A DNA stretch of 64,000 bases from Mycobacterium sp. (lineage in GTDB: Bacteria; Actinomycetota; Actinomycetes; Mycobacteriales; Mycobacteriaceae): NCBI GenBank assembly GCA_032159565.1, contig JAVHWR010000038.1. One strand, 5' to 3'. Of the stretch, positions 1 through 40,819 are shown in pieces. How positions within the stretch are numbered: position 1 is the stretch's first letter; each line of letters begins with the position of its first letter. The notes beneath the pieces were generated by a model that did not search any database, was not told the DNA's origin, and saw only the letters and a program-made list of their open reading frames with translations. The translations under genes were made by a program, and so were the position numbers.

Positions 1-1221
1 AATGGGTACCTCGCGCAGGTCGAGGACGAAGTGCGCCACACGAACCAGCTTGGCTATCTGAAGAAGTACTTCGCTTCCCAGTACTACGATCCGGCCGGAT
101 TCACCGGTGCCCGCGGTCACCGTCATGGCAACCCGCTGTTCGGAAACAACCGCCAACAGGCATGCGAGACCTTCGTTTCCGGCGATCCGGTGCTGATCTC
201 GCTCAACCTCCAGATGGTTGCCGAGGCGTGCTTCACGAACCCGCTCGTGGTCGCAATGACCGAGTGGGCCGCCGCGAACGGTGATGAGGTCACCCCGACC
301 GTGTTTCTCTCGATTCAGTCCGACGAGCTGCGTCACATGGCCAATGGCTACCAGACGATCGTCTCGGTCATCGAGAACGACCACAACATGCAGTACCTGC
401 AGACCGACCTCGAGAACGCCTTCTGGATCCAGCACCGCGGATTCAGTTCGATGGTCGGACGGGCCTTCGAGTATGGCGCGGTCAACCGCGCCGAACCGTG
501 GGCGCAGACCTGGAACGACTGGGTAATCGAGGACTGGGGCGGCATCTGGATGGGCAGGTTCTCGAAGTTCGGTTTGGACTCACCGAGAAACCTGGCCGAT
601 GCGAGCCGCGACGCGTATTGGGCCCACCACGACTCCTTCGGCATCGCCTATGCCCTGTGGCCGTTCCTCGGCTACCGCCTCGAGCTGCCGAACGACACCG
701 ACAAGGAATGGTTCGAGAGGCACTACCCGGGCTGGTACACCTCGATCGGATCCACCTTCGACAGGTGGCGGGAGATCGGTGTCGAGGATCCGGGCAATCG
801 CACGAGCCCGGTTGAGCACCTCATCGAGCTCGGCAAGGTCCTGCATATCTGCCGTGTCTGTCAGTCGCCGCTCTTGAGCCTGCGCAAAACCGAAGAGCAT
901 GACGTGCAGCGGAACTCGTCCATCACCACTCGAATCATCTCCTACGGCGGTCGCAAGCACGCATTGTGCTCGGACTGGTGCGAGCGGATGTATCTGCAGG
1001 AGCCGGAACGCTACACCGGTCAGAACTTCCTGGAGATCTTCGACGGGTGGGAATTGTCCGAAATCGTCCGCGCCACAGGTGGTGTGCGCAGCGACGGGAA
1101 AACCCTGGTATCGCAACCCCATTTGAACAGCGAACGACTCTGGACGCTTGACGATCTCGCCGGCTGCGGCGTGACGGTTCGTGATCCGCATGTCGCAGGC
1201 GTCAGCTTCGAGAAGGTCTGA
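1..1221 (+). CDS. Soluble di-iron monooxygenase hydroxylase alpha subunit, MmoX/BmoX-like (5' end outside window)
   Basis: Frame 1 is open from base 1 (NGYLAQVEDEVRHTNQ). Both DExRH iron-binding motifs are present (DEVRH nt 25-39, DELRH nt 322-336), plus EACFTNPL, WAAANGDE, EDWGGIW, AYWAHHD, YPGWY and RSDGKTL, colinear with MmoX as recalled. Confidence 0.96.
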   Translation, partial: NGYLAQVEDEVRHTNQLGYLKKYFASQYYDPAGFTGARGHRHGNPLFGNNRQQACETFVSGDPVLISLNLQMVAEACFTNPLVVAMTEWAAANGDEVTPTVFLSIQSDELRHMANGYQTIVSVIENDHNMQYLQTDLENAFWIQHRGFSSMVGRAFEYGAVNRAEPWAQTWNDWVIEDWGGIWMGRFSKFGLDSPRNLADASRDAYWAHHDSFGIAYALWPFLGYRLELPNDTDKEWFERHYPGWYTSIGSTFDRWREIGVEDPGNRTSPVEHLIELGKVLHICRVCQSPLLSLRKTEEHDVQRNSSITTRIISYGGRKHALCSDWCERMYLQEPERYTGQNFLEIFDGWELSEIVRATGGVRSDGKTLVSQPHLNSERLWTLDDLAGCGVTVRDPHVAGVSFEKV

Positions 1222-2394: not shown

Positions 2395-2816
2395 CGGAAA
2401 TCCCTGTCACCGCCCAGAACTCACACCAGGCGGACGTGGACCGACGTATCTCGCGGGTGGACGCGCAGCAGTCGCGCGCCAACCTGTTCAGTGAGAACGG
2501 CGTGGTCGAGAGCCGTCGCGTGGTGCTGACCCTCACCAAGGCCGATGAGATCGAGGCGACCGTGGAGTGGCTCGCCGAACGGTACGCCGACGAGCCGAGT
2601 TTCACGATCCAGGACAGCGGAACCTACTACCGGATCGACTGCCTCGAAGGTTTCGAGATCGACGCCGAGGAGATAGCGGAACTCCTTGGCCGGCCCTTCT
2701 CCGTCTACGACCTCTTGGTGAACGTTTCCACCACGATCGGCCGGGCCTATGTGAACGGCGAGATATTCGCCATCACCACCGATCTCATCGGCTGGGAGCG
2801 CGAGGTGCCCCGATGA
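2391..2816 (+). CDS. SDIMO coupling/regulatory protein (MmoB-like) with N-terminal extension
   Basis: VVLTLTKADEI, EIAELLGRPFSVYDLLVNVSTTIGRAY and ITTDLIG match the MmoB/DmpM fold; ATGA overlap with the beta stop. Confidence 0.93.
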   Translation: MTEIPVTAQNSHQADVDRRISRVDAQQSRANLFSENGVVESRRVVLTLTKADEIEATVEWLAERYADEPSFTIQDSGTYYRIDCLEGFEIDAEEIAELLGRPFSVYDLLVNVSTTIGRAYVNGEIFAITTDLIGWEREVPR

Positions 2817-3838
2817 CCGAGTACAAGGTCGCGCTGACATTCGAGGGAGCCGACCGCGTCGACATCGCCTGCCGAGGTGACGAGGACGTCATCACTGCCG
2901 CTCTGAGACAGGGGTACCTACTCCTGAGCGACTGCCGCGAGGGCAGTTGTTCCACGTGCCGCGGGTTCCTGGTGGACGGCGACTATGACCAGTTGCTCAC
3001 CCACAGCCCCCACGCCCTCACCGAAGCCGAGGAGGACGACGGCCTGATCCTCGCCTGCCGCCTTCAGCCGGCGAGCGACCTGGAGATCGACTTCGACTAC
3101 CCAGCCGACCGCGTCGGGCGTTACGAGGAGGGCACGCGAACCGGGCAGATCGTGGAGGCCGAGCGCCTGTCGGAAACCGTCGCCCGGATCGTCGTTCGCA
3201 CCAACGCGGCTCAGGATCCACTCGATTGGGATCCCGGCCAATACGTTCAGGTCACTTTGCCTGCGCTCGGGGTCACCCGCGCCTACTCGATGTCAAAACC
3301 CGCAGACGGAAGCCGTCAACTGGAGTTCTTGATCCGACTACTGGCGGATGGCAAGTTCTCCGGTCATGTCGCCGCCGGGCTGGCGAAGGGTGAGCCGGTC
3401 CGGGTGCGAGGACCTCACGGTCAGTTCATCTTTCGCGGCGATCCGAAACCGGTGTTCATCGCCGGCGGGACGGGCGTCGCGCCGATCCTCGCGATTCTGC
3501 GGTCGTTGGCGCAGACCGCGCCCGACACCGAGGCAGGGGTGGTTTTCGGCGTTGGTACCGAAGCCGAACTGTTCGGCGTAGACGAGCTCTCCGAGCTGAG
3601 GCGTGTCCTGCCGAATCTCGACGTGGTGATCACCGTTGAGCGCCCGACATCGTCCTGGTCGGGTGCCGTCGGGCGAGTGACCGATCACCTCGGCGCCGAC
3701 GACCCCGCTAAGTCTTATTACCTCTGCGGGCCATCGGGGATGGCCAGCGCCGCCGAGGAACTCCTCGCAGCCGACGGAGTGGCCCGTGACCGCATCCATA
3801 TCGAACGGTTTCTCGAGACCGGAGAAGACCAGTCATGA
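2813..3838 (+). CDS. SDIMO reductase (2Fe-2S ferredoxin + FAD/NAD domains, MmoC-like)
   Basis: Start taken at ATG 2813 (ATGA overlap). DCREGSCSTC...LACR cluster ligands, RAYS and GKFS FAD motifs, FIAGGTGVAP and YLCGP NAD motifs, C-terminal ERF. Confidence 0.95.
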   Translation: MTEYKVALTFEGADRVDIACRGDEDVITAALRQGYLLLSDCREGSCSTCRGFLVDGDYDQLLTHSPHALTEAEEDDGLILACRLQPASDLEIDFDYPADRVGRYEEGTRTGQIVEAERLSETVARIVVRTNAAQDPLDWDPGQYVQVTLPALGVTRAYSMSKPADGSRQLEFLIRLLADGKFSGHVAAGLAKGEPVRVRGPHGQFIFRGDPKPVFIAGGTGVAPILAILRSLAQTAPDTEAGVVFGVGTEAELFGVDELSELRRVLPNLDVVITVERPTSSWSGAVGRVTDHLGADDPAKSYYLCGPSGMASAAEELLAADGVARDRIHIERFLETGEDQS

Positions 3839-4389
3839 CGCGAAATAGCAACGCCTCCGCGGGTGCAACGCCGCGGACCGAATACCCGCCGTTCGGAAAC
3901 CAGGCGTTGCGCCACGAGTGGACCGATCGCCTGGCACAGCTCTCGACACTCGATTCGGCACTCGCGCTTCTGCTCGATTGGCGACGCAGCCGTGAAGTCA
4001 ACGTCCTCGAAGAGGCGGACTTCCTGTGGATCGAGGCGCGCATCGAAGACCGGGTCGCAGTCCTCCGATTCGCCGAACTGTCAGGCGAGTACATCGATAC
4101 GACGGCACTCACCGGCGTTCCGATCTCGCAGGTCTGCGACACTGCACTGGCCGACGCGAGGGCGGCCGCCGACGTCCCGACACTCGAGACGGTCGTGAAC
4201 GCCTTCCGTCGCAACTTCAAGCCGCCGGTGATTCCCACTGTGCCGTTCATGCGCACCGAGACCGAGCTTGCCGAACTGCTGATGCTGCGCCGCTCCAAAG
4301 GGTGGTACGACGAGCCGCTTGACGAATTGCGACGCCGCCGCGCGGCCGTCCTGGTCCTCGAAGGAGCAGCAGGCGAACACGACAAGTAG
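3835..4389 (+). CDS. SDIMO hydroxylase gamma subunit (MmoZ-like)
   Basis: RHEWTDRLAQLSTL, DFLWIEARIEDRVAVL, FRRNFKPPVIP and WYDEPLDELRRRR align in order with recalled MmoZ motifs (DYLWIEAKLEEKVAVL, YKPPIMP, YYDTPLEELRKQR); ATGA overlap. Confidence 0.9.
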   Translation: MTRNSNASAGATPRTEYPPFGNQALRHEWTDRLAQLSTLDSALALLLDWRRSREVNVLEEADFLWIEARIEDRVAVLRFAELSGEYIDTTALTGVPISQVCDTALADARAAADVPTLETVVNAFRRNFKPPVIPTVPFMRTETELAELLMLRRSKGWYDEPLDELRRRRAAVLVLEGAAGEHDK

Positions 4390-4434: not shown

Positions 4435-6003
4435 ATGCCCAACCTCGAATTCATCCAGCAATCAGGCGCATTGGGATATGCGCTTCTCTTCGGCCCGGGA
4501 ATCGTGCTGCTGCTCATCGCCCTTGCCGTCAAGGGAGCCGTCAAGACGACGCACAACTTCGTGATCTCCGGGCGGCTTCTCGGCTTCGGATTCGGTGTCG
4601 CGTCGCTCATCTCGGTGTGGACGTGGTCGATGGCGGTGATGCTGTCGTCCGCGCAGGCCTACACCTGGGGCACTTCAGGACTGGTCTGGTTCATCGTGCC
4701 CAACGGGCTCGCCGTGATCATCATGGTGCCGTTCGCCCTCAAACTTCGCCAGAAGATGCCTTCCGGCTATACCCTCGCGGAGTTCATTCGCGCACGGTTC
4801 CGGAACGGAATCAGCAGTGTGGCGACGCTGATCTTTCTGATCGGTGCTCTGCTCGGCGTCATCATGATCAACCTCGCCGGACTGGTACTGGTCATGAACA
4901 AGATCTTCGGCCTCACCCCGGTCAGCATCGTCATCACCGGCATCATCGTCGTCACCGTGTATTCCTACTTCGGTGGGCTGACCACATCCGCCGTGACCGG
5001 AACCTTGAACACTCTCCTTCTCGGTGTCGGGTCCTCGGTGGTCGTGCTCTACGCCTTGGCCAAGGCGGGCGGCGCAGAACTGGTGTTCAATGAGGTCCAC
5101 GCTCTCGGTGACCAGCACCTGAACCCCTTCAACCCGGTCACCGCCGCGAGCTTCGGCCTCGCGTTGGCTCTCGGACTACTCACGAATGTCATTGCCGACC
5201 AGTCATTCTGGCAGCGCGTATGGGCAATCAGGCCCAAGGATCTCGGCCGCAGCTTCCTGTGGGCAGGCGTGTGGTTCTACCCGATTCCTCTGGCGCTGGG
5301 CCTGCTTGGCTTCATCGGTGTCGCCTACGGCGTGACGCCCGAACAGCTGGGTTCGCTGGGGGCAGGTGCGATCGGCCCACACGTCATCGCCAGCCTCGGC
5401 CTGCCGATATTCATCATCGCCCTTTACACCCTTGTGGTCGTCAACGCGTGCTTCGCGGCCATCGACGGGGCACTGTCCGGCGTGACCTCGCTGGTCGCTG
5501 TCGACATCGTCCATCGCTACTGGCCTCAGGTGTCTGAGCGCAAGCTGCTCACCATCACCAAGACCAGCATGATCGTCGCGGCCGTAGTCGCCGGTGGTGT
5601 GGTGCTGACAGGTATCGACTACGTGAATCTCGTTACGACGGTGTACTTCTACGGCACAAGCCTTCTGATTCCGGTGACGCTCAGCATCTTCTGGTCGCGG
5701 ATGACCGGAACAGGGTACGTCGCGGGTGTGCTCGCGGGCATAGTCGTCGGTGGTCCTCTGCGCGAGACGCTCGGGCCCACGTACGGACCGCTCTTCGGAA
5801 TCATCGGGTTGATCGCTGCGTCGGCAATCGTCTCGGTGGTCGTCAGCCTGCGCGCCGACACCCAGTTCGACTTCGGCAGCTTGGCGGAAGGCAAGGCGGC
5901 GCTTCTGGAACGTGGAAACGGTGCGGCGCCGAAGAAACAAGCCGCGACGCCCGAGGCACTCGATGCCGACGACGCACGCAGCGAGCCCGCCGGACAGCAG
6001 TAA
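4435..6003 (+). CDS. Sodium:solute symporter family transporter, DUR3 (urea/polyamine)-like
   Basis: 522 aa with about 13 hydrophobic segments; ASLISVWTWSMAVMLSSAQAYTWG, GYTLAEFIRARF, YSYFGGL and DQSFWQR; AAGGAG SD upstream. Confidence 0.85.
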   Translation: MPNLEFIQQSGALGYALLFGPGIVLLLIALAVKGAVKTTHNFVISGRLLGFGFGVASLISVWTWSMAVMLSSAQAYTWGTSGLVWFIVPNGLAVIIMVPFALKLRQKMPSGYTLAEFIRARFRNGISSVATLIFLIGALLGVIMINLAGLVLVMNKIFGLTPVSIVITGIIVVTVYSYFGGLTTSAVTGTLNTLLLGVGSSVVVLYALAKAGGAELVFNEVHALGDQHLNPFNPVTAASFGLALALGLLTNVIADQSFWQRVWAIRPKDLGRSFLWAGVWFYPIPLALGLLGFIGVAYGVTPEQLGSLGAGAIGPHVIASLGLPIFIIALYTLVVVNACFAAIDGALSGVTSLVAVDIVHRYWPQVSERKLLTITKTSMIVAAVVAGGVVLTGIDYVNLVTTVYFYGTSLLIPVTLSIFWSRMTGTGYVAGVLAGIVVGGPLRETLGPTYGPLFGIIGLIAASAIVSVVVSLRADTQFDFGSLAEGKAALLERGNGAAPKKQAATPEALDADDARSEPAGQQ

Positions 6004-6030: not shown

Positions 6031-6369
6031 GTGGTCATCTTTTACATCGGCGCAACCATCGGCTTGGTTCTCGCCGTCCTCTATCTGATCGTCGGCGCCC
6101 TCAGCTTTCTCCGGATCCGGCGAGAGTTGGTGGCAGGCAACAGTGTGGTTCTGGGGGAAGAGACAGACTCCTCCGAGATCGCCCTTGTGCCCGGCTTCAC
6201 ATGGAAGGCGACCTTGGCCGTCCTGACGTCGTTCGTCTTACTGGTCATCGCTTCCTACAGCGGCGTGTTCTGGTACGTGCTCGCGTTGAGCGGACTCGGT
6301 ACAGCAGCGGCGGTAATCGTTGCCTTCGTTCTCGAGCTGCGTGGCGACCGCACCGGGACCGCCGCGTGA
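6031..6369 (+). CDS. Small membrane protein (about 3 TM helices), unknown function
   Basis: 112 aa, hydrophobic; GAAAGG SD before the GTG; its stop overlaps the next start (GTGA); fills the gap within the operon. Confidence 0.75.
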   Translation: MVIFYIGATIGLVLAVLYLIVGALSFLRIRRELVAGNSVVLGEETDSSEIALVPGFTWKATLAVLTSFVLLVIASYSGVFWYVLALSGLGTAAAVIVAFVLELRGDRTGTAA

Positions 6370-7685
6370 CCAAGAAAAAGGCGCACCTTCTGGGTTTCGT
6401 TCAGCACGGTGTGATGAACCACGCGTCGACGATGTGGGCGCATCCGCGCGACAAGGTCGGCTATCACTGGTCGCGGCCGGAGTATTGGCGCGATCTCGGC
6501 GGGATCATGGAGCGTGGCCTGTTCGACGCGATGTTCATCGCCGACGAGTTGGCCCCGTACACCACCTATAAGGGCAACTCGGATCCGGTCGTGAAGTATG
6601 CCGGACAGTGTCCGGTGCACGAGCCCGCAACTCTGGTGCCGATCATCGGGGCGTTCACCAAACACCTCGGGATCGGCATCACGCTGTCGACATCGTTTGT
6701 GCCGCCGTACATGATGGCCCGCCACCTGTCCTCGCTCGACCACCTGACCAACGGCCGGGTCGGCTGGAACATTGTGACGTCGTACTCCAAGAGCGAGTTC
6801 CAGGCGATGGGCAAGGACAACCTCACGCCTCGGGACAAGCGTTACGAAGTGGTCGAGGAGTACATGCAACTGCTGTACCAGCTGTGGGACTCCTGGGATG
6901 ACGACGCGATCGTCTACGACCGCGAGAATGGGATCTTCGCCGATCCCTCGAAGGTGCGCGAAGTCGACTTCCAAGGCGAGTTCTTCAAGTCGAAGGGGCG
7001 CCACTTCGTCGCACCGTCACCGCAGAAGCGGCCGGTGCTGTGGCAGGCCGGCTCCTCGGATCAGGGCCGCGATTTCGCCTCCAAACACGCGGAATCCGTG
7101 TTCGGCATCTTCCCTACCCCCAAGAGCATGCGGGCCTATGCCGACGACATCCGCACCCGAGCCGACGACCACGGACGCGATCCCGATTCGGTGAAGCTGA
7201 TCTACGGTCTGCAGACCATCATCGATCGGGACAAATCCCGCGCGAACGACAAGTACGCCGAGTTCGTCGAGAAGGTGCAGATCGAGAGCGCACTGGGAAT
7301 CCTTTCTGGCCATACGGGATTCGACTTCTCCACACTCGGCCTAGACGACAACGTCGTCGATGCGGACGTGCAGGGTATCCGCGGTCTGTTCGACGCCATC
7401 CTGGAGGCCAAGGACGGCGCACCGGTGACCGTCCGTGAGGCCGCGCAGATCTATGGAGTCTCGATGGGCGCGCCGGTCGCGGTTGGCACACCCTTGGACG
7501 TCGCCGACCAGATGGAGCAGTACCTCGACGACGGCGGCTGCAACGGCTTCATGTTGCTTGCCACCGATACGCCCGGCTGCTTCAACGACGTGACCGAGCT
7601 GCTGGTGCCCGAACTTCAGCGGCGCGGACGGTACCGGACGCGCTATCCCGGAACGACTTTGCGGGAAAGCCTGCAGGAGTATTAG
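6366..7685 (+). CDS. NtaA/SnaA/DszA/DmoA-family FMN-dependent (LLM class) monooxygenase
   Basis: Start GTG 6366. FDAMFIAD, HEPATLV, TKHLGIGITLSTS, SSLDHLTNGRVGWNIVTS, QAGSSDQGRDFASKHAE and LVPELQRRG. Confidence 0.92.
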   Translation: MTKKKAHLLGFVQHGVMNHASTMWAHPRDKVGYHWSRPEYWRDLGGIMERGLFDAMFIADELAPYTTYKGNSDPVVKYAGQCPVHEPATLVPIIGAFTKHLGIGITLSTSFVPPYMMARHLSSLDHLTNGRVGWNIVTSYSKSEFQAMGKDNLTPRDKRYEVVEEYMQLLYQLWDSWDDDAIVYDRENGIFADPSKVREVDFQGEFFKSKGRHFVAPSPQKRPVLWQAGSSDQGRDFASKHAESVFGIFPTPKSMRAYADDIRTRADDHGRDPDSVKLIYGLQTIIDRDKSRANDKYAEFVEKVQIESALGILSGHTGFDFSTLGLDDNVVDADVQGIRGLFDAILEAKDGAPVTVREAAQIYGVSMGAPVAVGTPLDVADQMEQYLDDGGCNGFMLLATDTPGCFNDVTELLVPELQRRGRYRTRYPGTTLRESLQEY

Positions 7686-9190
7686 CAGTCGTCGTGTCTG
7701 GCTTCGCGCCAGGCCCGCTCGAACGGCAGCCGCCATGCGTTGGGCGCGATCAGCTGGTGAATCGCGTTGGGCCCCCACGTGCCCTGCGGGTACGACTTGA
7801 CCGCCGGCGGGTCGGACAGCAGGCTCTCCGAACGCTCCCACAGCGACTCGATGCCCTCCGCGGTGGTGAACAGTGTGTGATCGCCGCGCATCGCGTCGAG
7901 GATCAGGCGCTCGTAGGCCTCGAGCACGTCGTTCATGGTGTCGGTCTCTTGAGTCGAGAACTGCATCGAGAGCTTGTCGAGCTTCATCCCGGGTCCTGGG
8001 CGCTTGCCGTAGAAGGACAGCGACACCTTGGAGTTGTCGGCGAGATCGAAGGTGAGGTGGTCGGGGCCTTGGGAACCGACGCCCGAGCCCGACGGGAACA
8101 TGGACCGCGGCGCCTCTTTGAACGCAATGGAGATGACGCGAATGCCCTCGGCCATACGCTTTCCCGTGCGGAGGTAGATCGGTACCCCGGCCCAACGCCA
8201 GTTGTCGATACCCACCTTGAGCGCGATGAACGTCTCGGTATCGGAATCGCGGGCGACACCTTTATTCTTGCGGTACCCCACGTACTGCCCTCGGACAACT
8301 TTGGCCGGGTCGACAGGCAACATCGAGCGGAACACCTTGTTCTTCTCTTCGCTGATGGCGCGGGGTTCGAGTGCCGTCGGCGGCTCCATCACGACGAACG
8401 CCATCACCTGGAAAAGGTGGGTGACCACCATGTCCTTGTAGGCGCCGGTGCTCTCGTAGAAGTTGGCCCGTTCGTCCAGCCCCAGGGTCTCCGGGATGTC
8501 GATCTGGATATGGTCGATGAAGTTGCGGTTCCAGATCGGCTCGAACAGACCGTTGGCGAACCTGAAGGCCAGGATGTTCTGCGCGGCCTCCTTGCCGAGA
8601 AAGTGGTCGATGCGGAAGATCTGACTTTCGTCAAACGTCTCGTGGACGAAGTCGTTGAGTTCGACGGCGCTCTCCAAGTCGGTGCCGAACGGCTTCTCCA
8701 TGACGACCCGCGATCGCTCCACCAGCTTCGCGTCACGCAGCATGGTGATGACCGCGCGGGCGGCTTTCGGCGGTACCGACAGATAGTGGAGACGGCGGAC
8801 GTCCGGCCCCAGCTTTTCCTCGGCTTCCTCGACGGCGGCTGCAAGTGCCTCGGGACCCGTGCTCTGAGGGACGTAGGTGACCCTCTCGGCGAACCGGGCC
8901 CACTGTTCCTCGGTGAGCTTGTGCGTTCCGAAGTCGTCGATTGCCTCTTTGGCGACTTCGAGGAACTCGTCTCGGGAAATCTCCTCCAGCGACGTCGCGA
9001 CGATCTCGATGTTGGGTGCGAGTTCGGACTGGCCGAGATAGGCGAGCCCGGGAATCAATTTCCGTCTCGCAAGGTCACCGGTCGCGCCGAACAACACGAC
9101 GACGTGCGGATCGACCGCGAAGTCGTCGTTACGGCGTGCGCGCGCGCCCGGCCCCGGGTAGGAGATCGTCTGCGGTTTGCTTGTCGCCAC
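7682..9190 (-). CDS. zwf: Glucose-6-phosphate 1-dehydrogenase
   Basis: GATGDLARRKL, RVVMEKPFG, RIDHFLGKE, WAGVPIYLRTGKR and AYERLI. GTG 9190 has a GGAAGG SD; ATG 9199 is the alternative start. Confidence 0.95.
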   Translation of the reverse strand: MATSKPQTISYPGPGARARRNDDFAVDPHVVVLFGATGDLARRKLIPGLAYLGQSELAPNIEIVATSLEEISRDEFLEVAKEAIDDFGTHKLTEEQWARFAERVTYVPQSTGPEALAAAVEEAEEKLGPDVRRLHYLSVPPKAARAVITMLRDAKLVERSRVVMEKPFGTDLESAVELNDFVHETFDESQIFRIDHFLGKEAAQNILAFRFANGLFEPIWNRNFIDHIQIDIPETLGLDERANFYESTGAYKDMVVTHLFQVMAFVVMEPPTALEPRAISEEKNKVFRSMLPVDPAKVVRGQYVGYRKNKGVARDSDTETFIALKVGIDNWRWAGVPIYLRTGKRMAEGIRVISIAFKEAPRSMFPSGSGVGSQGPDHLTFDLADNSKVSLSFYGKRPGPGMKLDKLSMQFSTQETDTMNDVLEAYERLILDAMRGDHTLFTTAEGIESLWERSESLLSDPPAVKSYPQGTWGPNAIHQLIAPNAWRLPFERAWREARHDDC

Positions 9191-9419
9191 GCTCGGCATC
9201 CTTCCACCGCCGGATTCTTCACGCACGCTTTGCCGCCCTCCGCCACCGCGCAGTCACAAGCCAGACAACCTATCGTTACCCCTGATCGGCGCCGGCCAAT
9301 CGTCTCGTGCCTGGTACTGCCACCGCCGTCAATTTCTCAGCAACCCAATATGCAACCGGTGTACTCTCCGGGCGGTTGGGGACCACGCGGCGACGCACCT
9401 ACCGGGACGAGGCTGTGCC

Positions 9420-11771
9420 ATGGCAACCGAATTCAACGGCAAAATCGAGCTGGACATCCGCGATTCCGAGCCGGACTGGGGGCCCTACGCCGCACCCACC
9501 GCACCCGAAGGCTCGCCCAACATCCTCTATCTCGTGTGGGACGACACCGGCATCGCGACCTGGGATTGCTTCGGTGGCCTGGTGGAGATGCCGACGATGA
9601 GCCGCATCGCTGAACGCGGTGTGCGGCTCTCGCAGTTCCACACCACTGCGCTGTGCTCGCCGACGCGCGCCTCGCTGCTGACCGGACGCAACGCCACCAC
9701 CGTCGGCATGGCCACCATCGAGGAGTTCACCGACGGGTTCCCCAACTGTAACGGCCGCATCCCGGCGGACACCGCGCTGCTGTCAGAGGTGTTGAACGAG
9801 CGGGGCTACAACACCTACTGCGTCGGCAAATGGCATCTGACACCGTTGGAAGAGTCGAATCTCGCTGCCACCCGGCGTCATTGGCCGCTGTCTCGCGGGT
9901 TCGAGAGGTTCTACGGCTTCATGGGCGGCGAGACCGACCAGTGGTACCCGGACCTGGTATACGACAACCATCAGGTCGCACCGCCGGCGACGCCGGAAGA
10001 GGGCTATCACCTGTCGAAGGACCTCGCCGACAAGACAATCGAGTTCATCCGCGACGCCAAGGTGATCGCCCCCGACAAGCCGTGGTTCAGCTATGTCTGT
10101 CCCGGTGCCGGGCATGCCCCACACCACGTCTTCAAGGAGTGGGCGGACAAGTACGCAGGCAAGTTCGACATGGGTTACGAGCGCTACCGCGAGATCGTGC
10201 TCGAGAACCAGAAGAAGCTCGGCATCGTGCCGCCCGACACCGAATTGTCGCCTGTCAACCCGTATCTCGACGTCAAGGGTCCCAATGGAGAAGCGTGGCC
10301 ATATCAGGACACGGTGCGGCCGTGGGAGGGACTCAACGACGAGGAGAAGCGCCTCTTCAGCCGGATGGCAGAGGTGTTCGCCGGATTCCTGTCCTACACC
10401 GACGCCCAGATCGGGCGCGTCCTGGACTATCTCGAGGAGTCCGGGCAATTGGACGACACGATCATCGTGGTGATCTCCGACAACGGCGCCAGCGGTGAGG
10501 GCGGCCCGAACGGGTCGGTCAACGAGGTGAAGTTCTTCAACGGCTACATCGACACGGCCGAGGACGGCATGGCCTACATCGACCACCTCGGCGGACCGGA
10601 GACCTACAACCACTATCCGATCGGCTGGGCGATGGCGTTCAACACGCCCTACAAGCTGTTCAAGCGCTACGCCTCGCATGAGGGCGGCATCGCCGACACC
10701 GCAATCGTCAGCTGGCCCAACGGAATCAAGGCGCACGGCGAGGTACGCGACAATTACGTCAACGTCTGCGACATCACCCCGACAGTTTACGACCTGCTCG
10801 GTATCACCCCGCCCGCAGAAGTCGGCGGTATCGCACAGAAGCCGCTCGACGGCGTGAGTTTCAAAGCCGCCCTGGACAATCCGTCCGTCGAGACCGGCAA
10901 AGACACCCAGTTCTACACGATGCTCGGCACCCGGGGCATCTGGCACAAGGGCTGGTTCGCCAACACCGTTCACGCCGCCACCCCGGCGGGCTGGTCTCAC
11001 TTCGAGCAGGACCGGTGGGAGCTGTACAACATCGAGGCGGACCGCAGTCAGTGTCATGACCTCGCCGCCGACGAACCGGACAAACTCGACGAGATGAAGA
11101 AGCTCTGGTTCGACGAGGCCGCGAAGTACAACGGGCTTCCGCTGGCCGATCTCAACATCTTCGAGACGATGACGCGCTTTCGGCCGTATCTCGTCGCCGA
11201 CCGGAAGAACTTCACGTACTACCCGGACAACTCCGACGTCGGCCTCGGCGCGGCACCGGAGCTGCGAGGCCAGTCGTTCTCCGTGCTGGCCGAGGTCACC
11301 GTCGACACGCCCGGCGCGGAGGGAGTGCTCTACAAGCAGGGCGCGGGGCACGGCGGCCACGTGTTGTTCGTCCAGGACGGCCGGTTGCACTACATCTACA
11401 ACTTCATGGGGGAGGACGAGCAGAAGTTGTCCGCGCCTGACCCGCTGCCGTTGGGCGATCATGTCTTCGGTGTGCGCTATGACCGCACCGGCACGGTTGA
11501 AGGCAGTCATACGCCGCTGGGCGACGTCTCGCTCTACGTCGACGGTGCCCCGGTGGCGACGATGCCGGGAGTGCGCACCCACCCCGCGAGCTTCGGCCTT
11601 TCGGGCGGCGGCGTGGCCGTCGGACGCAACACCGGCCAGGCAGTGTCGAGCAGCTACAAAGCCCCATACCCGTTTACCGGTGGGACCATCGCCAAGGTCG
11701 TCGTCGACATCTCGGGCACGCCCTACCTGGACGTCGAACGGGAATTGGCGCAAGCCTTCTCAAAAGACTGA
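9420..11771 (+). CDS. atsA: Arylsulfatase (type I, formylglycine-dependent)
   Basis: NILYLVWDD, CSPTRASLLTGR (CxPxR), GKWHL and SDNG; 783 aa; next to an FGE gene and upstream of rplN as in M. tuberculosis Rv0711. Confidence 0.93.
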   Translation: MATEFNGKIELDIRDSEPDWGPYAAPTAPEGSPNILYLVWDDTGIATWDCFGGLVEMPTMSRIAERGVRLSQFHTTALCSPTRASLLTGRNATTVGMATIEEFTDGFPNCNGRIPADTALLSEVLNERGYNTYCVGKWHLTPLEESNLAATRRHWPLSRGFERFYGFMGGETDQWYPDLVYDNHQVAPPATPEEGYHLSKDLADKTIEFIRDAKVIAPDKPWFSYVCPGAGHAPHHVFKEWADKYAGKFDMGYERYREIVLENQKKLGIVPPDTELSPVNPYLDVKGPNGEAWPYQDTVRPWEGLNDEEKRLFSRMAEVFAGFLSYTDAQIGRVLDYLEESGQLDDTIIVVISDNGASGEGGPNGSVNEVKFFNGYIDTAEDGMAYIDHLGGPETYNHYPIGWAMAFNTPYKLFKRYASHEGGIADTAIVSWPNGIKAHGEVRDNYVNVCDITPTVYDLLGITPPAEVGGIAQKPLDGVSFKAALDNPSVETGKDTQFYTMLGTRGIWHKGWFANTVHAATPAGWSHFEQDRWELYNIEADRSQCHDLAADEPDKLDEMKKLWFDEAAKYNGLPLADLNIFETMTRFRPYLVADRKNFTYYPDNSDVGLGAAPELRGQSFSVLAEVTVDTPGAEGVLYKQGAGHGGHVLFVQDGRLHYIYNFMGEDEQKLSAPDPLPLGDHVFGVRYDRTGTVEGSHTPLGDVSLYVDGAPVATMPGVRTHPASFGLSGGGVAVGRNTGQAVSSSYKAPYPFTGGTIAKVVVDISGTPYLDVERELAQAFSKD

Positions 11772-11781
11772 TGATGTTCCG

Positions 11782-12477
11782 GTGAAGCGGTTCGGTCGCG
11801 CGACGTGGGTCCTGCTGACTCTGGTCGCTGTGCTGGTCTCGGCGTGCGTGCGGACCGACGAAGGCGTGGCGATCCGTGGCGAGGATGCCGCGACGTCCAC
11901 CAGCGCGCGACCTCAACCCACAAAGCCGACGGAGGATGCCGGGCCTCCGGCACCCGGCGTCGTTGTCACAACGCAAACGCCGATTCCGGCGAACACCGTC
12001 AGCTGCCCGGAACCGGTCAAACCTGCCGTCTCGGCCGTCGCGCAGGTCACCGATCCGGCCGCTCCCAAGATCACCGTGGCTGTCCCCGACGGCTGGTCGG
12101 TGCGGCCGGGCTCCGGTGACGTCGGCCTCCGCATGCAGGGACCCGACGGCATGTTCGCGACGGTGACCATCGGGCAGACGAAGCTCGATCCCGCTGCGGC
12201 GTTCATGGAATACGCCGACAAGGTGATGGCCGTGTCCGCGGTCAGCAGCGTGAGCGTGCTGCCCGCCGAACTGTGCGGGTACAGCGGACAAAAGCTGATG
12301 GGCGCGTGGTCGGACACGCCGCAACAGTCGGTCGAGTTCCTCGATCGGATTGCACACATACCGACGAACTCGAACAACTATCTGGTCGCCATCCACGTGC
12401 AGGCACCGGCCGCCACCGACGGATTCGAAGCAGCATCAACGGTGCTCATCGAGGACTTCGCCGTCGGCATACCCTGA
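11782..12477 (+). CDS. Lipoprotein, LpqN/LpqT-like
   Basis: GTG start; basic N-region, hydrophobic core and lipobox LVSAC; Pro/Thr-rich linker; C-terminal domain with ITVAVPDGW. Confidence 0.75.
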   Translation: MKRFGRATWVLLTLVAVLVSACVRTDEGVAIRGEDAATSTSARPQPTKPTEDAGPPAPGVVVTTQTPIPANTVSCPEPVKPAVSAVAQVTDPAAPKITVAVPDGWSVRPGSGDVGLRMQGPDGMFATVTIGQTKLDPAAAFMEYADKVMAVSAVSSVSVLPAELCGYSGQKLMGAWSDTPQQSVEFLDRIAHIPTNSNNYLVAIHVQAPAATDGFEAASTVLIEDFAVGIP

Positions 12478-12481
12478 AGTC

Positions 12482-13366
12482 ATGCTCACTGAGCTCGTCG
12501 AGGTGCCCGGCGGGTCGTTTCGGATGGGCTCGACGAGCTTCTATCCGGAAGAGGCGCCGATACACACGGTGCAGATGGCCGGGTTCGCGATCGAACGGCA
12601 TCCGGTCACCAACGCGCAGTTCGCCGAGTTCGTCGACGAGACGGGCCATGTCACCGTCGCCGAGCGCGACATCGATCCGGTGTTGTATCCGGAGGCGAAT
12701 CCGGCCGATCTGGTGCCGGGCGCACTGGTGTTCTCGCCGACGTCCGGGCCGGTGGATCTGCGGGACTGGCGGCAGTGGTGGGAATGGACACCCGGCGCCA
12801 GTTGGCGTCATCCCTTCGGTCCCGACAGTGGCATCGAAACCCTTGCCGATCATCCGGTCGTGCAGGTGGCCTATCCCGACGCGGCCGCTTACGCGCGCTG
12901 GGCGGGGCGCCACCTGCCGAGCGAGGCCGAATGGGAGTACGCGGCGCGCGGCGGCAGCAGTGCGACGTACGCGTGGGGCGCCGAGGCGGCGCCGGACGGG
13001 CGGCTGATGGCCAACACCTGGCAGGGCCGGTTCCCGTACCGGAATCTCGGTGCACTGGGGTGGACGGGCACGTCGCCGGTCGGGACGTTTCCGCCGAACG
13101 GCTACGGCCTCGCCGACATGATCGGCAACGTCTGGGAGTGGACGACGACGGAATTCGCCGGCCACCACCGGCTGGATGCTCCGGCCCATGGATGTTGTCC
13201 GGCGAGTGATGAGGGCGACCCCTCGGTCAGCCAGGCGCTCAAGGGGGGCTCACATCTGTGCGCGCCGGAATACTGCCACCGCTACCGGCCGGCTGCACGC
13301 TCGCCGCAGTCACAGGACAGCGCGACCACGCATATCGGATTCCGTTGCGTGGCTGATATCGCCTGA
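12482..13366 (+). CDS. Formylglycine-generating enzyme (sulfatase-modifying factor)
   Basis: HPVVQVAYPDA, LPSEAEWEYAARGG, NGYGLADMIGNVWEW and KGGSHLCAPEYCHRYRPAAR (CxxxxC active site). Confidence 0.95.
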   Translation: MLTELVEVPGGSFRMGSTSFYPEEAPIHTVQMAGFAIERHPVTNAQFAEFVDETGHVTVAERDIDPVLYPEANPADLVPGALVFSPTSGPVDLRDWRQWWEWTPGASWRHPFGPDSGIETLADHPVVQVAYPDAAAYARWAGRHLPSEAEWEYAARGGSSATYAWGAEAAPDGRLMANTWQGRFPYRNLGALGWTGTSPVGTFPPNGYGLADMIGNVWEWTTTEFAGHHRLDAPAHGCCPASDEGDPSVSQALKGGSHLCAPEYCHRYRPAARSPQSQDSATTHIGFRCVADIA

Positions 13367-38948: not shown

Positions 38949-40274
38949 GTGCTCTCGGCTTTCATCTCATCGCTGCGGACGGCTGATCTACGGCGCAAGA
39001 TTCTCTTCACTCTGGCCATCCTGATCCTGTACCGGGTCGGCGCCTCGATCCCGTCGCCCGGTGTCAACTACGGCAACGTCGAGAAGTGCCTCACACAGCT
39101 CAGCGGTGGCGACTCGGCGCAGATCTACTCGCTGATCAACCTGTTTTCCGGCGGCGCTCTGCTGAAGCTGGCAGTGTTCGCGATCGGCATCATGCCTTAC
39201 ATCACCGCGAGCATCATCGTGCAGCTGCTCGGGGTGGTCATTCCGCGCTTCGAAGAGCTGCGCAAAGAGGGGCAAGCGGGTCAGGCCAAACTCACCCAGT
39301 ACACCCGCTACCTGTCGGTCGCGCTGGCGCTCCTGCAGGCCACCAGCATCGTGGCGCTGGCCTCCAATGGCGGGCTGCTGCAGGGCTGCAGCCTCGACAT
39401 CATCCAGAGCACGTCGATCTTCTCGCTGGCCGTCATCGTGCTCGTGATGACCGCGGGCGCGACGCTGGTGATGTGGATGGGCGAGCTGATTCAGGAACGT
39501 GGCATCGGCAACGGCATGTCGCTGATGATCTTCGCCAGCATTGCCGCCCGCATCCCGTCCGAGGGCAAGAGCATCCTCGACAGCCGCGGCCCGGTCGTCT
39601 TCACCGCGGTCTGCTTCGCCGCCCTGGTGATCATCGTCGGCGTGGTGTTCGTCGAGCAGGGCCAGCGCCGTATCCCGGTGCAGTACGCCAAGCGAATGGT
39701 CGGCCGCAAGATGTACGGCGGCACGTCGACCTATCTGCCACTGAAGGTCAACCAGGCCGGTGTCATCCCGGTGATCTTCGCGTCGTCGCTGATCTATATC
39801 CCGCACCTGATCACCCAGCTGATCCAGAGCGGGCAGGCCACCCCAGGAAACGGGTGGTGGGACAAGCTCGTCGCGAACTATCTCACCAACCCGGCCAGCC
39901 TCTCCTACATCGCGATCTACTTCGGCCTGATCGTCTTCTTCACCTATTTCTACGTCTCGGTGCAGTTCAACGTCGATGAGCGCGCCGACGAGATGAAGAA
40001 GTACGGCGGCTTCATCCCCGGTATCCGTCCGGGCAAGCCGACCGCCGACTACCTGCGCTTCGTGCTCAACAGGATCACCCTTCCCGGCTCGATCTACCTC
40101 GGCGTCATCGCCGTCCTGCCGAACCTGTTCCTCGAGATCGGCAACTCCGGAGGTGTGCAGAACTTGCCGTTCGGCGGGACAGCGGTTCTCATCATGGTTG
40201 GCGTCGGTTTGGATACGGTCAAACAGATCGAGAGCCAGCTGATGCAGCGCAACTACGAAGGGTTCCTGAAGTGA
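38949..40274 (+). CDS. secY: Preprotein translocase subunit SecY
   Basis: FALG-like [47 protein letters not shown] and GGTAVLI. Confidence 0.99.
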
Positions 40275-40819
40275 GAGTCGTTCTGCTGGGCCCGCCGGGG
40301 GCGGGCAAGGGGACACAGGCCCAGAAGCTCTCCGAGAAGCTCGGCATTCCGCAGATCTCCACCGGGGACCTCTTCCGCGAGAACATCAGCTCCGGCACAC
40401 CGCTGGGCCTCGAGGCCAAGCGCTACCTGGACGCAGGCGACCTGGTGCCCTCGGAGCTGACGAACAAATTGGTCGAGGACCGCATCGAGCAGTCGGACGC
40501 CGCCGACGGGTTCATCCTGGACGGCTACCCGCGATCGGTGGCGCAGGCCGAGGCGCTCGACGAGATGCTCAAGAACCACAACACCAAGCTCGACGCGGTG
40601 CTGGAGTTCGCGGTCTCCGAAGAGGAGCTGTTCTCGCGCCTCAAGGCCCGCGGCCGCGCCGATGACACCGAAGACGTCATCCACAACCGGATGAAGGTTT
40701 ACTCCGACGAGACCAGACCCCTGCTCGAGTACTACAGCCACAACAACCTGCAGACGGTCGACGCGGTCGGCGGTCTCGACGAGGTCTTCGCCCGCGCGCT
40801 CCGCTCCCTCGGCAAGTAG
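40271..40819 (+). CDS. adk: Adenylate kinase (short LID)
   Basis: [30 protein letters not shown]. Confidence 0.99.

Follow-up and report, generated by a model that had tools for sequence, protein, structure and literature searches.

The closest described relatives of the enzyme examined here are two soluble di-iron monooxygenases (SDIMOs) of group 3, SmoXYB1C1Z of M. chubuense NBB4 and the Smo of Rhodococcus ZPP, each encoded on a catabolic plasmid; at a greater distance stand the soluble methane monooxygenases (sMMOs) of M. capsulatus Bath and M. trichosporium OB3b, with MmoX as their alpha subunit. A 2025 review presents group 3 as enzymes of methane and gaseous alkanes only, makes no mention of transporters or sulfur, and names the substrates of SDIMOs known from sequence only as the field's main gap (PMC11825192). 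Here, we describe a five-gene SDIMO operon at the start of a 64,000-nucleotide (nt) stretch of Mycobacterium sp. DNA (the window; C62:16863-80862, contig JAVHWR010000038.1 of the 6.2-Mb, 235-contig assembly GCA_032159565.1). The operon has the same five genes in the same order as those of NBB4 and ZPP, likewise with no MmoD, and its alpha subunit shares 61 to 62% identity with theirs. In contrast to the Smo operons, it is chromosomal, and it is followed by genes for a transporter and a flavin monooxygenase, whereas GroEL and aldehyde dehydrogenase genes follow in NBB4 and ZPP. We read the product as a five-component, Smo-type (group 3 subgroup A) SDIMO for a small, polar, imported organosulfur substrate, with a probability of roughly 45%.

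The five SDIMO genes are contiguous and open on the plus strand in the order X-Y-B-C-Z. The window begins within the alpha gene: positions 1 to 1221 (frame 1) encode the C-terminal 406 residues of a 532-amino-acid (aa) protein, P0002 (PF02332, E = 5e-41; MmoX, E = 3e-182), the start of which lies 377 nt upstream of the window, and the whole gene (C62:16485-18080) was read from the upstream DNA of the same contig. Behind it follow the hydroxylase beta subunit (positions 1231 to 2394, 387 aa; PF02332, E = 4e-36; MmoY model, 327 bits), an MmoB/DmpM-type coupling protein (2391 to 2816, 141 aa; PF02406, E = 6e-19), a reductase with Fer2, FAD_binding_6, and NAD_binding_1 domains (2813 to 3838, 341 aa from the ATG at 2813; MmoC model, 297 bits), and an MmoZ-type gamma subunit (3835 to 4389, 184 aa; PF02964, E = 1e-27); the beta-MmoB and reductase-gamma junctions overlap. 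On the same strand lie a sodium/solute-symporter-family (SSS) transporter (4435 to 6003, 522 aa), a small hydrophobic open reading frame (ORF) of 112 aa with about three membrane segments that always follows the SSS gene (6031 to 6369), and an NtaA/DmoA-family FMN-dependent monooxygenase (LLM; 6366 to 7685; TIGR03860, E = 5e-148). The sMMO gene order mmoXYBZDC, with MmoD and MmoG, is not present. No MmoD homologue was found anywhere in the genome and no MmoG or MmoR near the locus; no GroEL gene lies near the operon, the genome's only two copies being on other contigs.

A phmmer search against all PDB chains aligned alpha residues 12 to 420 gap-free with residues 20 to 428 of MmoX from M. capsulatus Bath (4gam_A and 1fyz_A; 409 residues, E = 3e-182, 54.0% identity). 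Since the alignment has no gap, the MmoX number equals the window residue plus 134, a numbering confirmed on 14 landmark residues, with the MmoX letters taken from the alignment itself. A sequence-only reading of the window had proposed the same gap-free alignment and numbering, and the residues it named hold up: E144, H147, E209, E243, H246, T213, and N214 are retained; the MmoX segment 181 to 191, WKGMKRVFSDG, has become FGNNRQQACET; and the codons, read directly, give L for C151 (CTT, positions 49 to 51), N for M184 (AAC, 148 to 150), A for F188 (GCA, 160 to 162), A for G208 (GCC, 220 to 222), and Q for E240 (CAG, 316 to 318). L110 and the sixth iron ligand, E114, are also kept, in the part of the gene upstream of the window (query L102 and E106), so that the carboxylate-bridged di-iron site of the SDIMO four-helix bundle is complete, with E114, E144-x-x-H147, E209, and E243-x-x-H246 supplying all six ligands. 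An AlphaFold model of the alpha subunit (pLDDT 88.6) has the sMMO hydroxylase fold, with TM scores of 0.90 to 0.94 to MMOH alpha.

The 54% alpha identity to MmoX of Bath exceeds the cutoff of at least 50% for group 3 (PMC11825192), and the MmoZ-type gamma subunit, MmoB-type coupling protein, and Fer2-FAD-NAD reductase make up the component set of that group. Phylogenetic analysis (maximum likelihood, LG+C20) placed the window protein inside the group 3 node, with group 5/6-like outgroups splitting off at 100/100 support, and within a clade of 23 rows (100/100 support, stem length 0.28). This clade forms an unresolved trichotomy with the Smo clade of NBB4, ZPP, and ENV421 and a third clade, whose sampled operons (L024, L025, and L026) carry MmoD. 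The common node (99/98 support) matches the subgroup A defined by Yang, Kertesz, and Coleman in 2025 (PMC11825192), the "Smo" subgroup, to which the window enzyme belongs by that placement and by its five-gene operon with no MmoD. The closest genomic relatives (87 to 91% alpha identity) are in M. moriokaense, M. elephantis, M. stellerae, several Mycobacterium sp. genomes, and metagenome-assembled genomes (MAGs). A Polyangiaceae MAG fragment carries G281, M285, and R288, and the clade therefore reaches beyond Actinomycetota.

At 37 positions of the pocket, gates, and pore, we compared the residues of 114 homologues, to which we added the characterized SmoX proteins of NBB4 and ZPP (from their plasmids), the group 6 PrmA of M. 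dioxanotrophicus PH-06, and the group 4 EtnC of Nocardioides JS614. The sequence-only reading had taken the five substitutions as a remodeling of the MmoX pocket, to be abandoned should they prove standard in characterized short-chain alkane SDIMOs. Four of the five are the default in SDIMOs that do not oxidize methane: A208 occurs in NBB4 SmoX, ZPP SmoX, and PrmA (EtnC has L208), Q240 occurs in all four, and in these enzymes position 151 is T, V, or E, not Cys, and position 184 is T, A, or L, not Met. The remodeling claim therefore fails for those residues. As far as sequence comparison goes, the direction of change is reversed for most of the list, with C151, M184, G208, and E240 being specialities of the sMMO branch and not the baseline. 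The remark in the sequence-only reading that A208 and Q240 resemble propane monooxygenases was correct. Position 188 stands apart. A small residue there is normal in groups 4 to 6, yet NBB4 and ZPP keep Phe188, so that A188 is the one listed change separating the window protein from the group 3 enzymes compared. Phe188 and Leu110 form a gate in MmoX (PMC13045389), E240 is the gate of a hydrophilic passage and F282 a tunnel gate (PMC8674909), and I217 and F192 are substrate-pocket residues (PMC5812538). The loss of the Phe188 gate, as the sequence-only reading had it, stands.

Similar comparisons were made with a census of 80 metagenomic loci, comprising 19 scored clade members and about 60 other group 3 loci. 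At positions 117, 151, 184, 187, 188, 208, 217, and 240, methanotroph-type loci essentially all read ACMVFGIE (one has R at 208). The window protein reads SLNQAAVQ at these positions, as do 19/19 metagenomic clade loci. Relative to MmoX of Bath and OB3b, then, it shares the iron ligands, the fold, the gap-free alignment of the catalytic core, a gamma subunit, and residues L110, T213, N214, F192, L204, F236, I239, and F282, but it differs in lacking A117, C151, M184, V187, F188, G208, I217, and E240. With NBB4 and ZPP SmoX it has A208, Q240, L110, T213, N214, and all iron ligands in common, but it differs from them in A188, S117, L151, N184, Q187, and V217, as well as in F282 (Ala in Smo), G281, M285, and R288. 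A208, Q240, and a small residue at 188 also occur in the group 5/6 enzymes (PrmABCD, MimABCD, and ThmADBC; PrmA of PH-06), which are known to accept polar substrates (acetone, tetrahydrofuran, dioxane, and N-nitrosodimethylamine [NDMA]). Those enzymes differ in being four-component, with no gamma subunit, a different gene order, about 40% identity, E or Q at 151, and F at 217.

The residues that are truly diagnostic of the clade include S117, Q187, V217, F105, K155, C189, G281, M285, and R288, which were not on the earlier list. They came from a blind search, made with no pocket list, for columns in which all clade rows share one residue and none of the 41 other group 3 rows has it. It returned ten strict signature columns (V105F, A117S, N155K, M184N, V187Q, S189C, I217V, Y281G, V285M, and M288R); C151L and F188A are near-unique to the clade. 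All ten strict positions fall within MmoX 105 to 288, on helices B, C, D, and E and the 261-293 helix of the AlphaFold model, which are helices of the pocket or channel. Within the window, L151 (positions 49 to 51; L in 23/23 clade rows and 4/41 other group 3 rows) follows the retained EVRH motif of E144 and H147 (28 to 39), and K155 (61 to 63; Asn in sMMO) is a single helix turn away from 151 and two turns away from H147. The helix D segment N184-R185-Q186-Q187-A188-C189 (148 to 165) contains three strict positions (184, 187, and 189) and the alanine that replaces the Phe188 gate. Between A208-E209-A-C-F-T213-N214 (220 to 240) and Q240-S-D-E243-L-R-H246 (316 to 336), both of which combine retained ligands with non-methane default residues, stands the pocket residue V217 (247 to 249), which is Ile in 39/41 other group 3 rows. 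In G281-F282-S-S-M285-V-G-R288 (439 to 462), the three strict positions flank the retained tunnel gate F282. By their helical spacing (147-151-155, 184-187-188, and 281-285-288), these residues share helix faces with H147 and with the gates F188 and F282.

Four of the 18 strict and relaxed positions are in a 15-residue textbook list of pocket and gate positions from the Rosenzweig/Lippard structures (hypergeometric P = 0.0012). The pocket residues are invariant in the 23 clade sequences, which span 69 to 100% identity, and only 53% of all clade columns are invariant. Judged from these alignments, the pattern of substitutions is not due to chance, and it is very likely that the window enzyme represents a distinct Smo subclade with a re-lined channel. 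The clade has not been characterized previously, and its ordinary features are those of non-methane relatives of methane monooxygenase (MMO). Most clade-specific residues are polar. The sequence-only reading had envisaged a larger, more polar pocket for a bulky or polar substrate in place of methane. The polar part is borne out by the clade residues and by the gene context described below, the latter being independent support for a polar over a gaseous substrate, and the idea of a channel adapted to a polar substrate is accordingly supported. The larger part finds little support in side-chain volumes: in a crude sum, the change is about −41 cubic angstroms for 12 positions of cavity 1 and about −107 once channel positions are included. 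We rejected an enlarged pocket as the main message; the bulk gained through C151L and G208A is set against that lost through F188A and I217V, which leaves a small net change in volume.

The SSS gene and the small ORF stand beside the SDIMO in all mycobacterial loci with enough flanking DNA. In distant clade members (69 to 77% alpha identity, different backgrounds), an SSS gene and a small ORF of 102 to 118 residues are again adjacent, downstream of gamma in L016/17/53, L020, L022, L048, and L051 and upstream of alpha in L018, L021, and L058, giving at least two gene orders overall. Since the pairing survives rearrangement of gene order, we argue for a functional link. Most clade loci have an NtaA/DmoA-type flavin monooxygenase gene as well; among the distant members, it is present in L016/17/53, L018, L051, and L058. 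The SSS gene is absent from about 60 non-clade group 3 census loci (sMMO, BMO, and other Smo), from the NBB4 and ZPP operons, and from the sister-clade contigs L024, L025, and L026; the non-clade loci carry GroEL, MmoD, alcohol dehydrogenase (ADH), or aldehyde dehydrogenase (ALDH) genes instead, none of which adjoins any clade member in the form of an ADH, ALDH, dedicated GroEL, or MmoD gene. The only meaningful solved relatives of the SSS transporter are DUR3 urea symporters. Symporters of the DUR3 type carry small polar neutral solutes. For the LLM, the best solved relative is the dimethylsulfide monooxygenase DmoA (6ak1, E = 2e-98), followed by LadA (8e-96) and DszA (8e-81).

Some of the distant operons have further features of their own. 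A gene for an Fe/Mn superoxide dismutase lies between gamma and SSS in six loci, all of them non-mycobacterial clade members (L016:14168-14809, L017:10080-10721, L020:6854-7477, L022:5998-6621, L048:9424-10047, and L051:14770-15393), and no homologue of it was found in the genome of the window. In three loci, the reductase position is occupied by a protein of 113 to 230 residues with a ferredoxin domain only and no FAD and NAD domains (L016:13192-13533, L017:9105-9446, and L018:8364-9056); electrons in those organisms must come from elsewhere.

Across the class, contexts of the SSS family were found in 1/174 genera and none outside this genus, and in a sample of 301 genomes of the family, the SDIMO was found only in that of the window. 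Six congeners hold SSS, small ORF, and LLM with no SDIMO (LLM, 92 to 94% identity; SSS, 52 to 94%), and we therefore rejected obligate coinheritance of the SDIMO with SSS and LLM. On the sequences compared, the module can stand alone, with the SDIMO as an optional partner, but no case of the SDIMO lacking the SSS-small ORF pair was seen. In one SDIMO-less congener (G138), the order rpsQ-SSS-small ORF-LLM occupies the same site. An element of about 28 nt, GTTCG-N2-TCA-N4-GA-N2-CAAA-N2-CTTA, is conserved 80 to 100 nt upstream of the alpha start in eight mycobacterial loci; in the genome of the window it is unique and lies at window position −465 (C62:16397; L003:9535). The same element precedes the SSS gene of G138 (L037:11631). 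It is probably a promoter or operator of the whole block, and its presence at both SDIMO-bearing and SDIMO-less loci suggests that the SDIMO genes lie within one regulated unit. In a diverged form of the module (L038:11221-15747 in G282 and also in G094), the SSS gene has 52 to 53% identity, and the small ORF is accompanied by two NtaA/DmoA-type monooxygenase genes in tandem (92% and 55 to 56% identity).

Several neighboring genes point toward sulfur. Directly before alpha and on its strand, L047 carries two genes for the dimethylsulfone monooxygenase SfnG (548 and 513 bits; cutoff, 383) and an SfnB gene (600 bits; cutoff, 431), together with a DszC-like gene, two NtaA-type LLMs, and AhpD/OsmC-type genes. 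In L018, the module is bracketed by a family 2A encapsulin and cysteine synthase A (446 bits; cutoff, 387). A TauD-like gene in L021 scores 292 bits, below the cutoff of 313, and a CysK-like gene before SSS-small ORF-LLM in the SDIMO-less G031 scores 335 bits (cutoff, 351). The genome of the window encodes SfnG elsewhere (C233:~8950-10088; 636 bits, cutoff 383) and can therefore process dimethylsulfone further. Genes of SfnB-like and SsuD-like type are present as well, both under their curated cutoffs (C121:30215-32541 and 39529-40746). In soil, dimethylsulfide (DMS) is converted through dimethylsulfoxide (DMSO), dimethylsulfone (DMSO2), methanesulfinate, and methanesulfonate to sulfite, and the only di-iron enzyme known in this route is the group 2 DsoABCDEF, which forms DMSO and DMSO2 from DMS (PMC13352529).

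From the gene identity, clade placement, signature residues, and gene linkage observed here, we infer a substrate class and a pathway role. The chemistry of the enzyme would be the usual one of SDIMOs, in which the reductase hands electrons from NAD(P)H on to the di-iron centre for oxygen activation and insertion. Its substrate would be small, polar, and water-soluble, not a gaseous alkane, and would enter through the DUR3-like symporter with its small membrane partner. The channel is predicted to be un-gated, with Ala in place of the Phe188 gate between cavities 1 and 2, while the di-iron site, L110, T213, and F282 are conserved; the helix faces of the pocket and channel would present mostly polar clade residues (S117, K155, N184, Q187, C189, and R288, along with V217, L151, F105, G281, and M285). 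The candidate substrates are methylated or short-chain organosulfur compounds (DMS, DMSO, dimethylsulfone, or a short alkanesulfonate) used for sulfur acquisition, and the adjacent DmoA/DszA-type flavin monooxygenase may take the neighboring C-S cleavage step. That the substrate is an imported polar compound is probable; that it contains sulfur is tentative, falling somewhat short of an even chance. We hold more loosely still the idea that a branch of the MMO lineage has moved from hydrocarbon oxidation to nutrient scavenging, where it would serve as an oxygenase for imported DMS, DMSO, dimethylsulfone, or methanesulfonate alongside an importer of the DUR3 type and a DmoA/DszA-type flavoenzyme that cleaves C-S bonds. 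By functional analogy at most, the function proposed would be that of DsoABCDEF of Acinetobacter sp. 20B, a phenol hydroxylase-type enzyme that oxidizes DMS to DMSO and DMSO2 for sulfur use. That enzyme differs in having six components and in belonging to another SDIMO group, and the window alpha matches phenol hydroxylase alpha at only E = 5e-24.

A number of observations weigh against an organosulfur oxygenase. Sulfur-specific neighbors occur in only about four independent contexts, while five others have a LysR regulator only and two an Rrf2; the clade contexts L046, L048, L050, L051, and L058, with LysR or Rrf2 regulators and unrelated genes only, carry no information on the substrate. Cysteine and methionine are not depleted in clade alphas compared to other group 3 alphas (4.12% versus 4.22%), which is a weak test. 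The alkane monooxygenase LadA scores nearly as well as DmoA against the LLM, and C151L puts a hydrophobic side chain beside the iron site. The linkage of SSS to the clade (Fisher P = 1e-10) overstates independence, since the clade loci are related to one another, and the six SDIMO-less genomes of the genus mean that the SDIMO is optional for the module.

Some of the same evidence could be read as an ordinary monooxygenase for gaseous C2 to C4 alkanes or alkenes, in which the pocket tunes chain length or regioselectivity and SSS and LLM are unrelated neighbors. The gene order and identity shared with smoXYB1C1Z of NBB4 and the ZPP operon fit this explanation, as do A208 and Q240, common to characterized Smo, the small residue at 188, normal in propane monooxygenases, and the fact that SSS-small ORF-LLM stands alone at the same chromosomal site in the same genus. 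We consider it unlikely. SSS and the small ORF keep their place beside the SDIMO over a range of 69 to 100% identity, in different phyla, and in two or more gene orders, and about 65 group 3 loci outside the clade lack them; clade members have no alcohol or aldehyde dehydrogenase, dedicated GroEL, or MmoD beside them, and their specific residues are mostly polar. Far less probable still is that the operon serves methane oxidation in a Mycobacterium capable of facultative methanotrophy, in the manner of the divergent sMMO reported from Ca. M. methanotrophicum and strain MM-1. Methanotrophic mycobacteria carry sMMO only, and these enzymes form a distinct mycobacterial group (PMC12366331), but the methanotroph-type loci of the census all keep C151, M184, V187, F188, I217, and E240, and all but one G208, none of which is present in the window protein. 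No linked alcohol dehydrogenase or C1 assimilation genes were seen, and the sister clade, with E240, often C151, and MmoD in its sampled operons, looks more sMMO-like. Growth on methane is also not known to have been reported for M. moriokaense, M. elephantis, or M. stellerae, all of which have clade members.

A polar substrate with no sulfur, such as a urea-like or N-methylated compound or a ketone (e.g., acetone), could likewise be imported by the DUR3-like carrier, in which case a C-N bond would be the target of the NtaA-type enzyme. The NtaA family does also cleave C-N bonds, and the NtaA, EmoA, and RutA relatives of the flavin enzyme act on them; the transporter's only solved relatives are urea symporters; and most contexts have no sulfur-specific gene. 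A further point in favor of such a substrate is that acetone, NDMA, and ethers are used by group 5 SDIMOs, which have A188, A208, and Q240 (PMC11825192). Against this stand the lack of any nitrogen-metabolism gene (urease, amidase, or amine dehydrogenase) seen beside any clade member, the specific neighbors that do occur (SfnG, SfnB, CysK, a TauD-like gene, and encapsulin 2A), and the rank of DmoA as top solved relative of the partner enzyme, and we regard this explanation as doubtful. It is also conceivable, at the lowest probability we would give to any of these, that the operon is a decaying or inactive relic. M. elephantis keeps only alpha and a 30-residue beta stub, and the SDIMO is missing from the six congeners that keep SSS-small ORF-LLM. 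In the window, by contrast, the five genes are open with overlapping junctions and all six iron ligands are present, and the clade residues are invariant over deep divergence, which points to purifying selection.

If the clade does handle an imported polar compound, as an organosulfur oxygenase would, it would extend the chemistry known for the sMMO lineage and offer a natural example of the Phe188 gate and channel lining setting the substrate class, useful for engineering sMMO-type catalysts. Scavenging of methylated sulfur would make it the first group 3 SDIMO with a non-hydrocarbon physiological substrate. Should that substrate be DMS or DMSO, the enzyme would be a new type in the terrestrial pathway from DMS to sulfite, which was completed genetically only in 2026 (PMC13352529). 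Experiments may be within reach. To our knowledge, no group 3 SDIMO other than the Smo of NBB4 has yet been expressed in a general laboratory host, and a close Mycolicibacterium relative is therefore likely to be tractable.

The SDIMO block lies on the chromosome between the ribosomal S10 and spc operons, flanked by rpsQ at the end of the S10 operon on one side and by zwf, arylsulfatase, formylglycine-generating enzyme (FGE), and rplN genes on the other, and the other mycobacterial loci are arranged alike. Beyond the LLM gene, zwf occupies positions 7682 to 9226 on the minus strand, followed by the arylsulfatase gene (9177 to 11771), the FGE gene (12350 to 13366), and then rplN. On the M. tuberculosis map, atsA lies at the corresponding position. 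In M. elephantis DSM 44368 (L008:94-1788), alpha is intact, beta consists of its first 30 codons only, and an arylsulfatase gene comes next; the strain has thus lost by deletion the remainder of the operon along with SSS, LLM, and zwf. A tyrosine recombinase gene of the phage integrase family lies upstream of the window (positions −8857 to −7724; L003:1143-2276, minus strand), about 1 kb upstream of rplC of the S10 operon. The genome contains two further SDIMO alpha genes (C144:2-1042 and C163:24256-25446); one of them, cut by a contig end, is 33% identical to the window alpha and has Q151, A208, and Q240, and the other is 24% identical.

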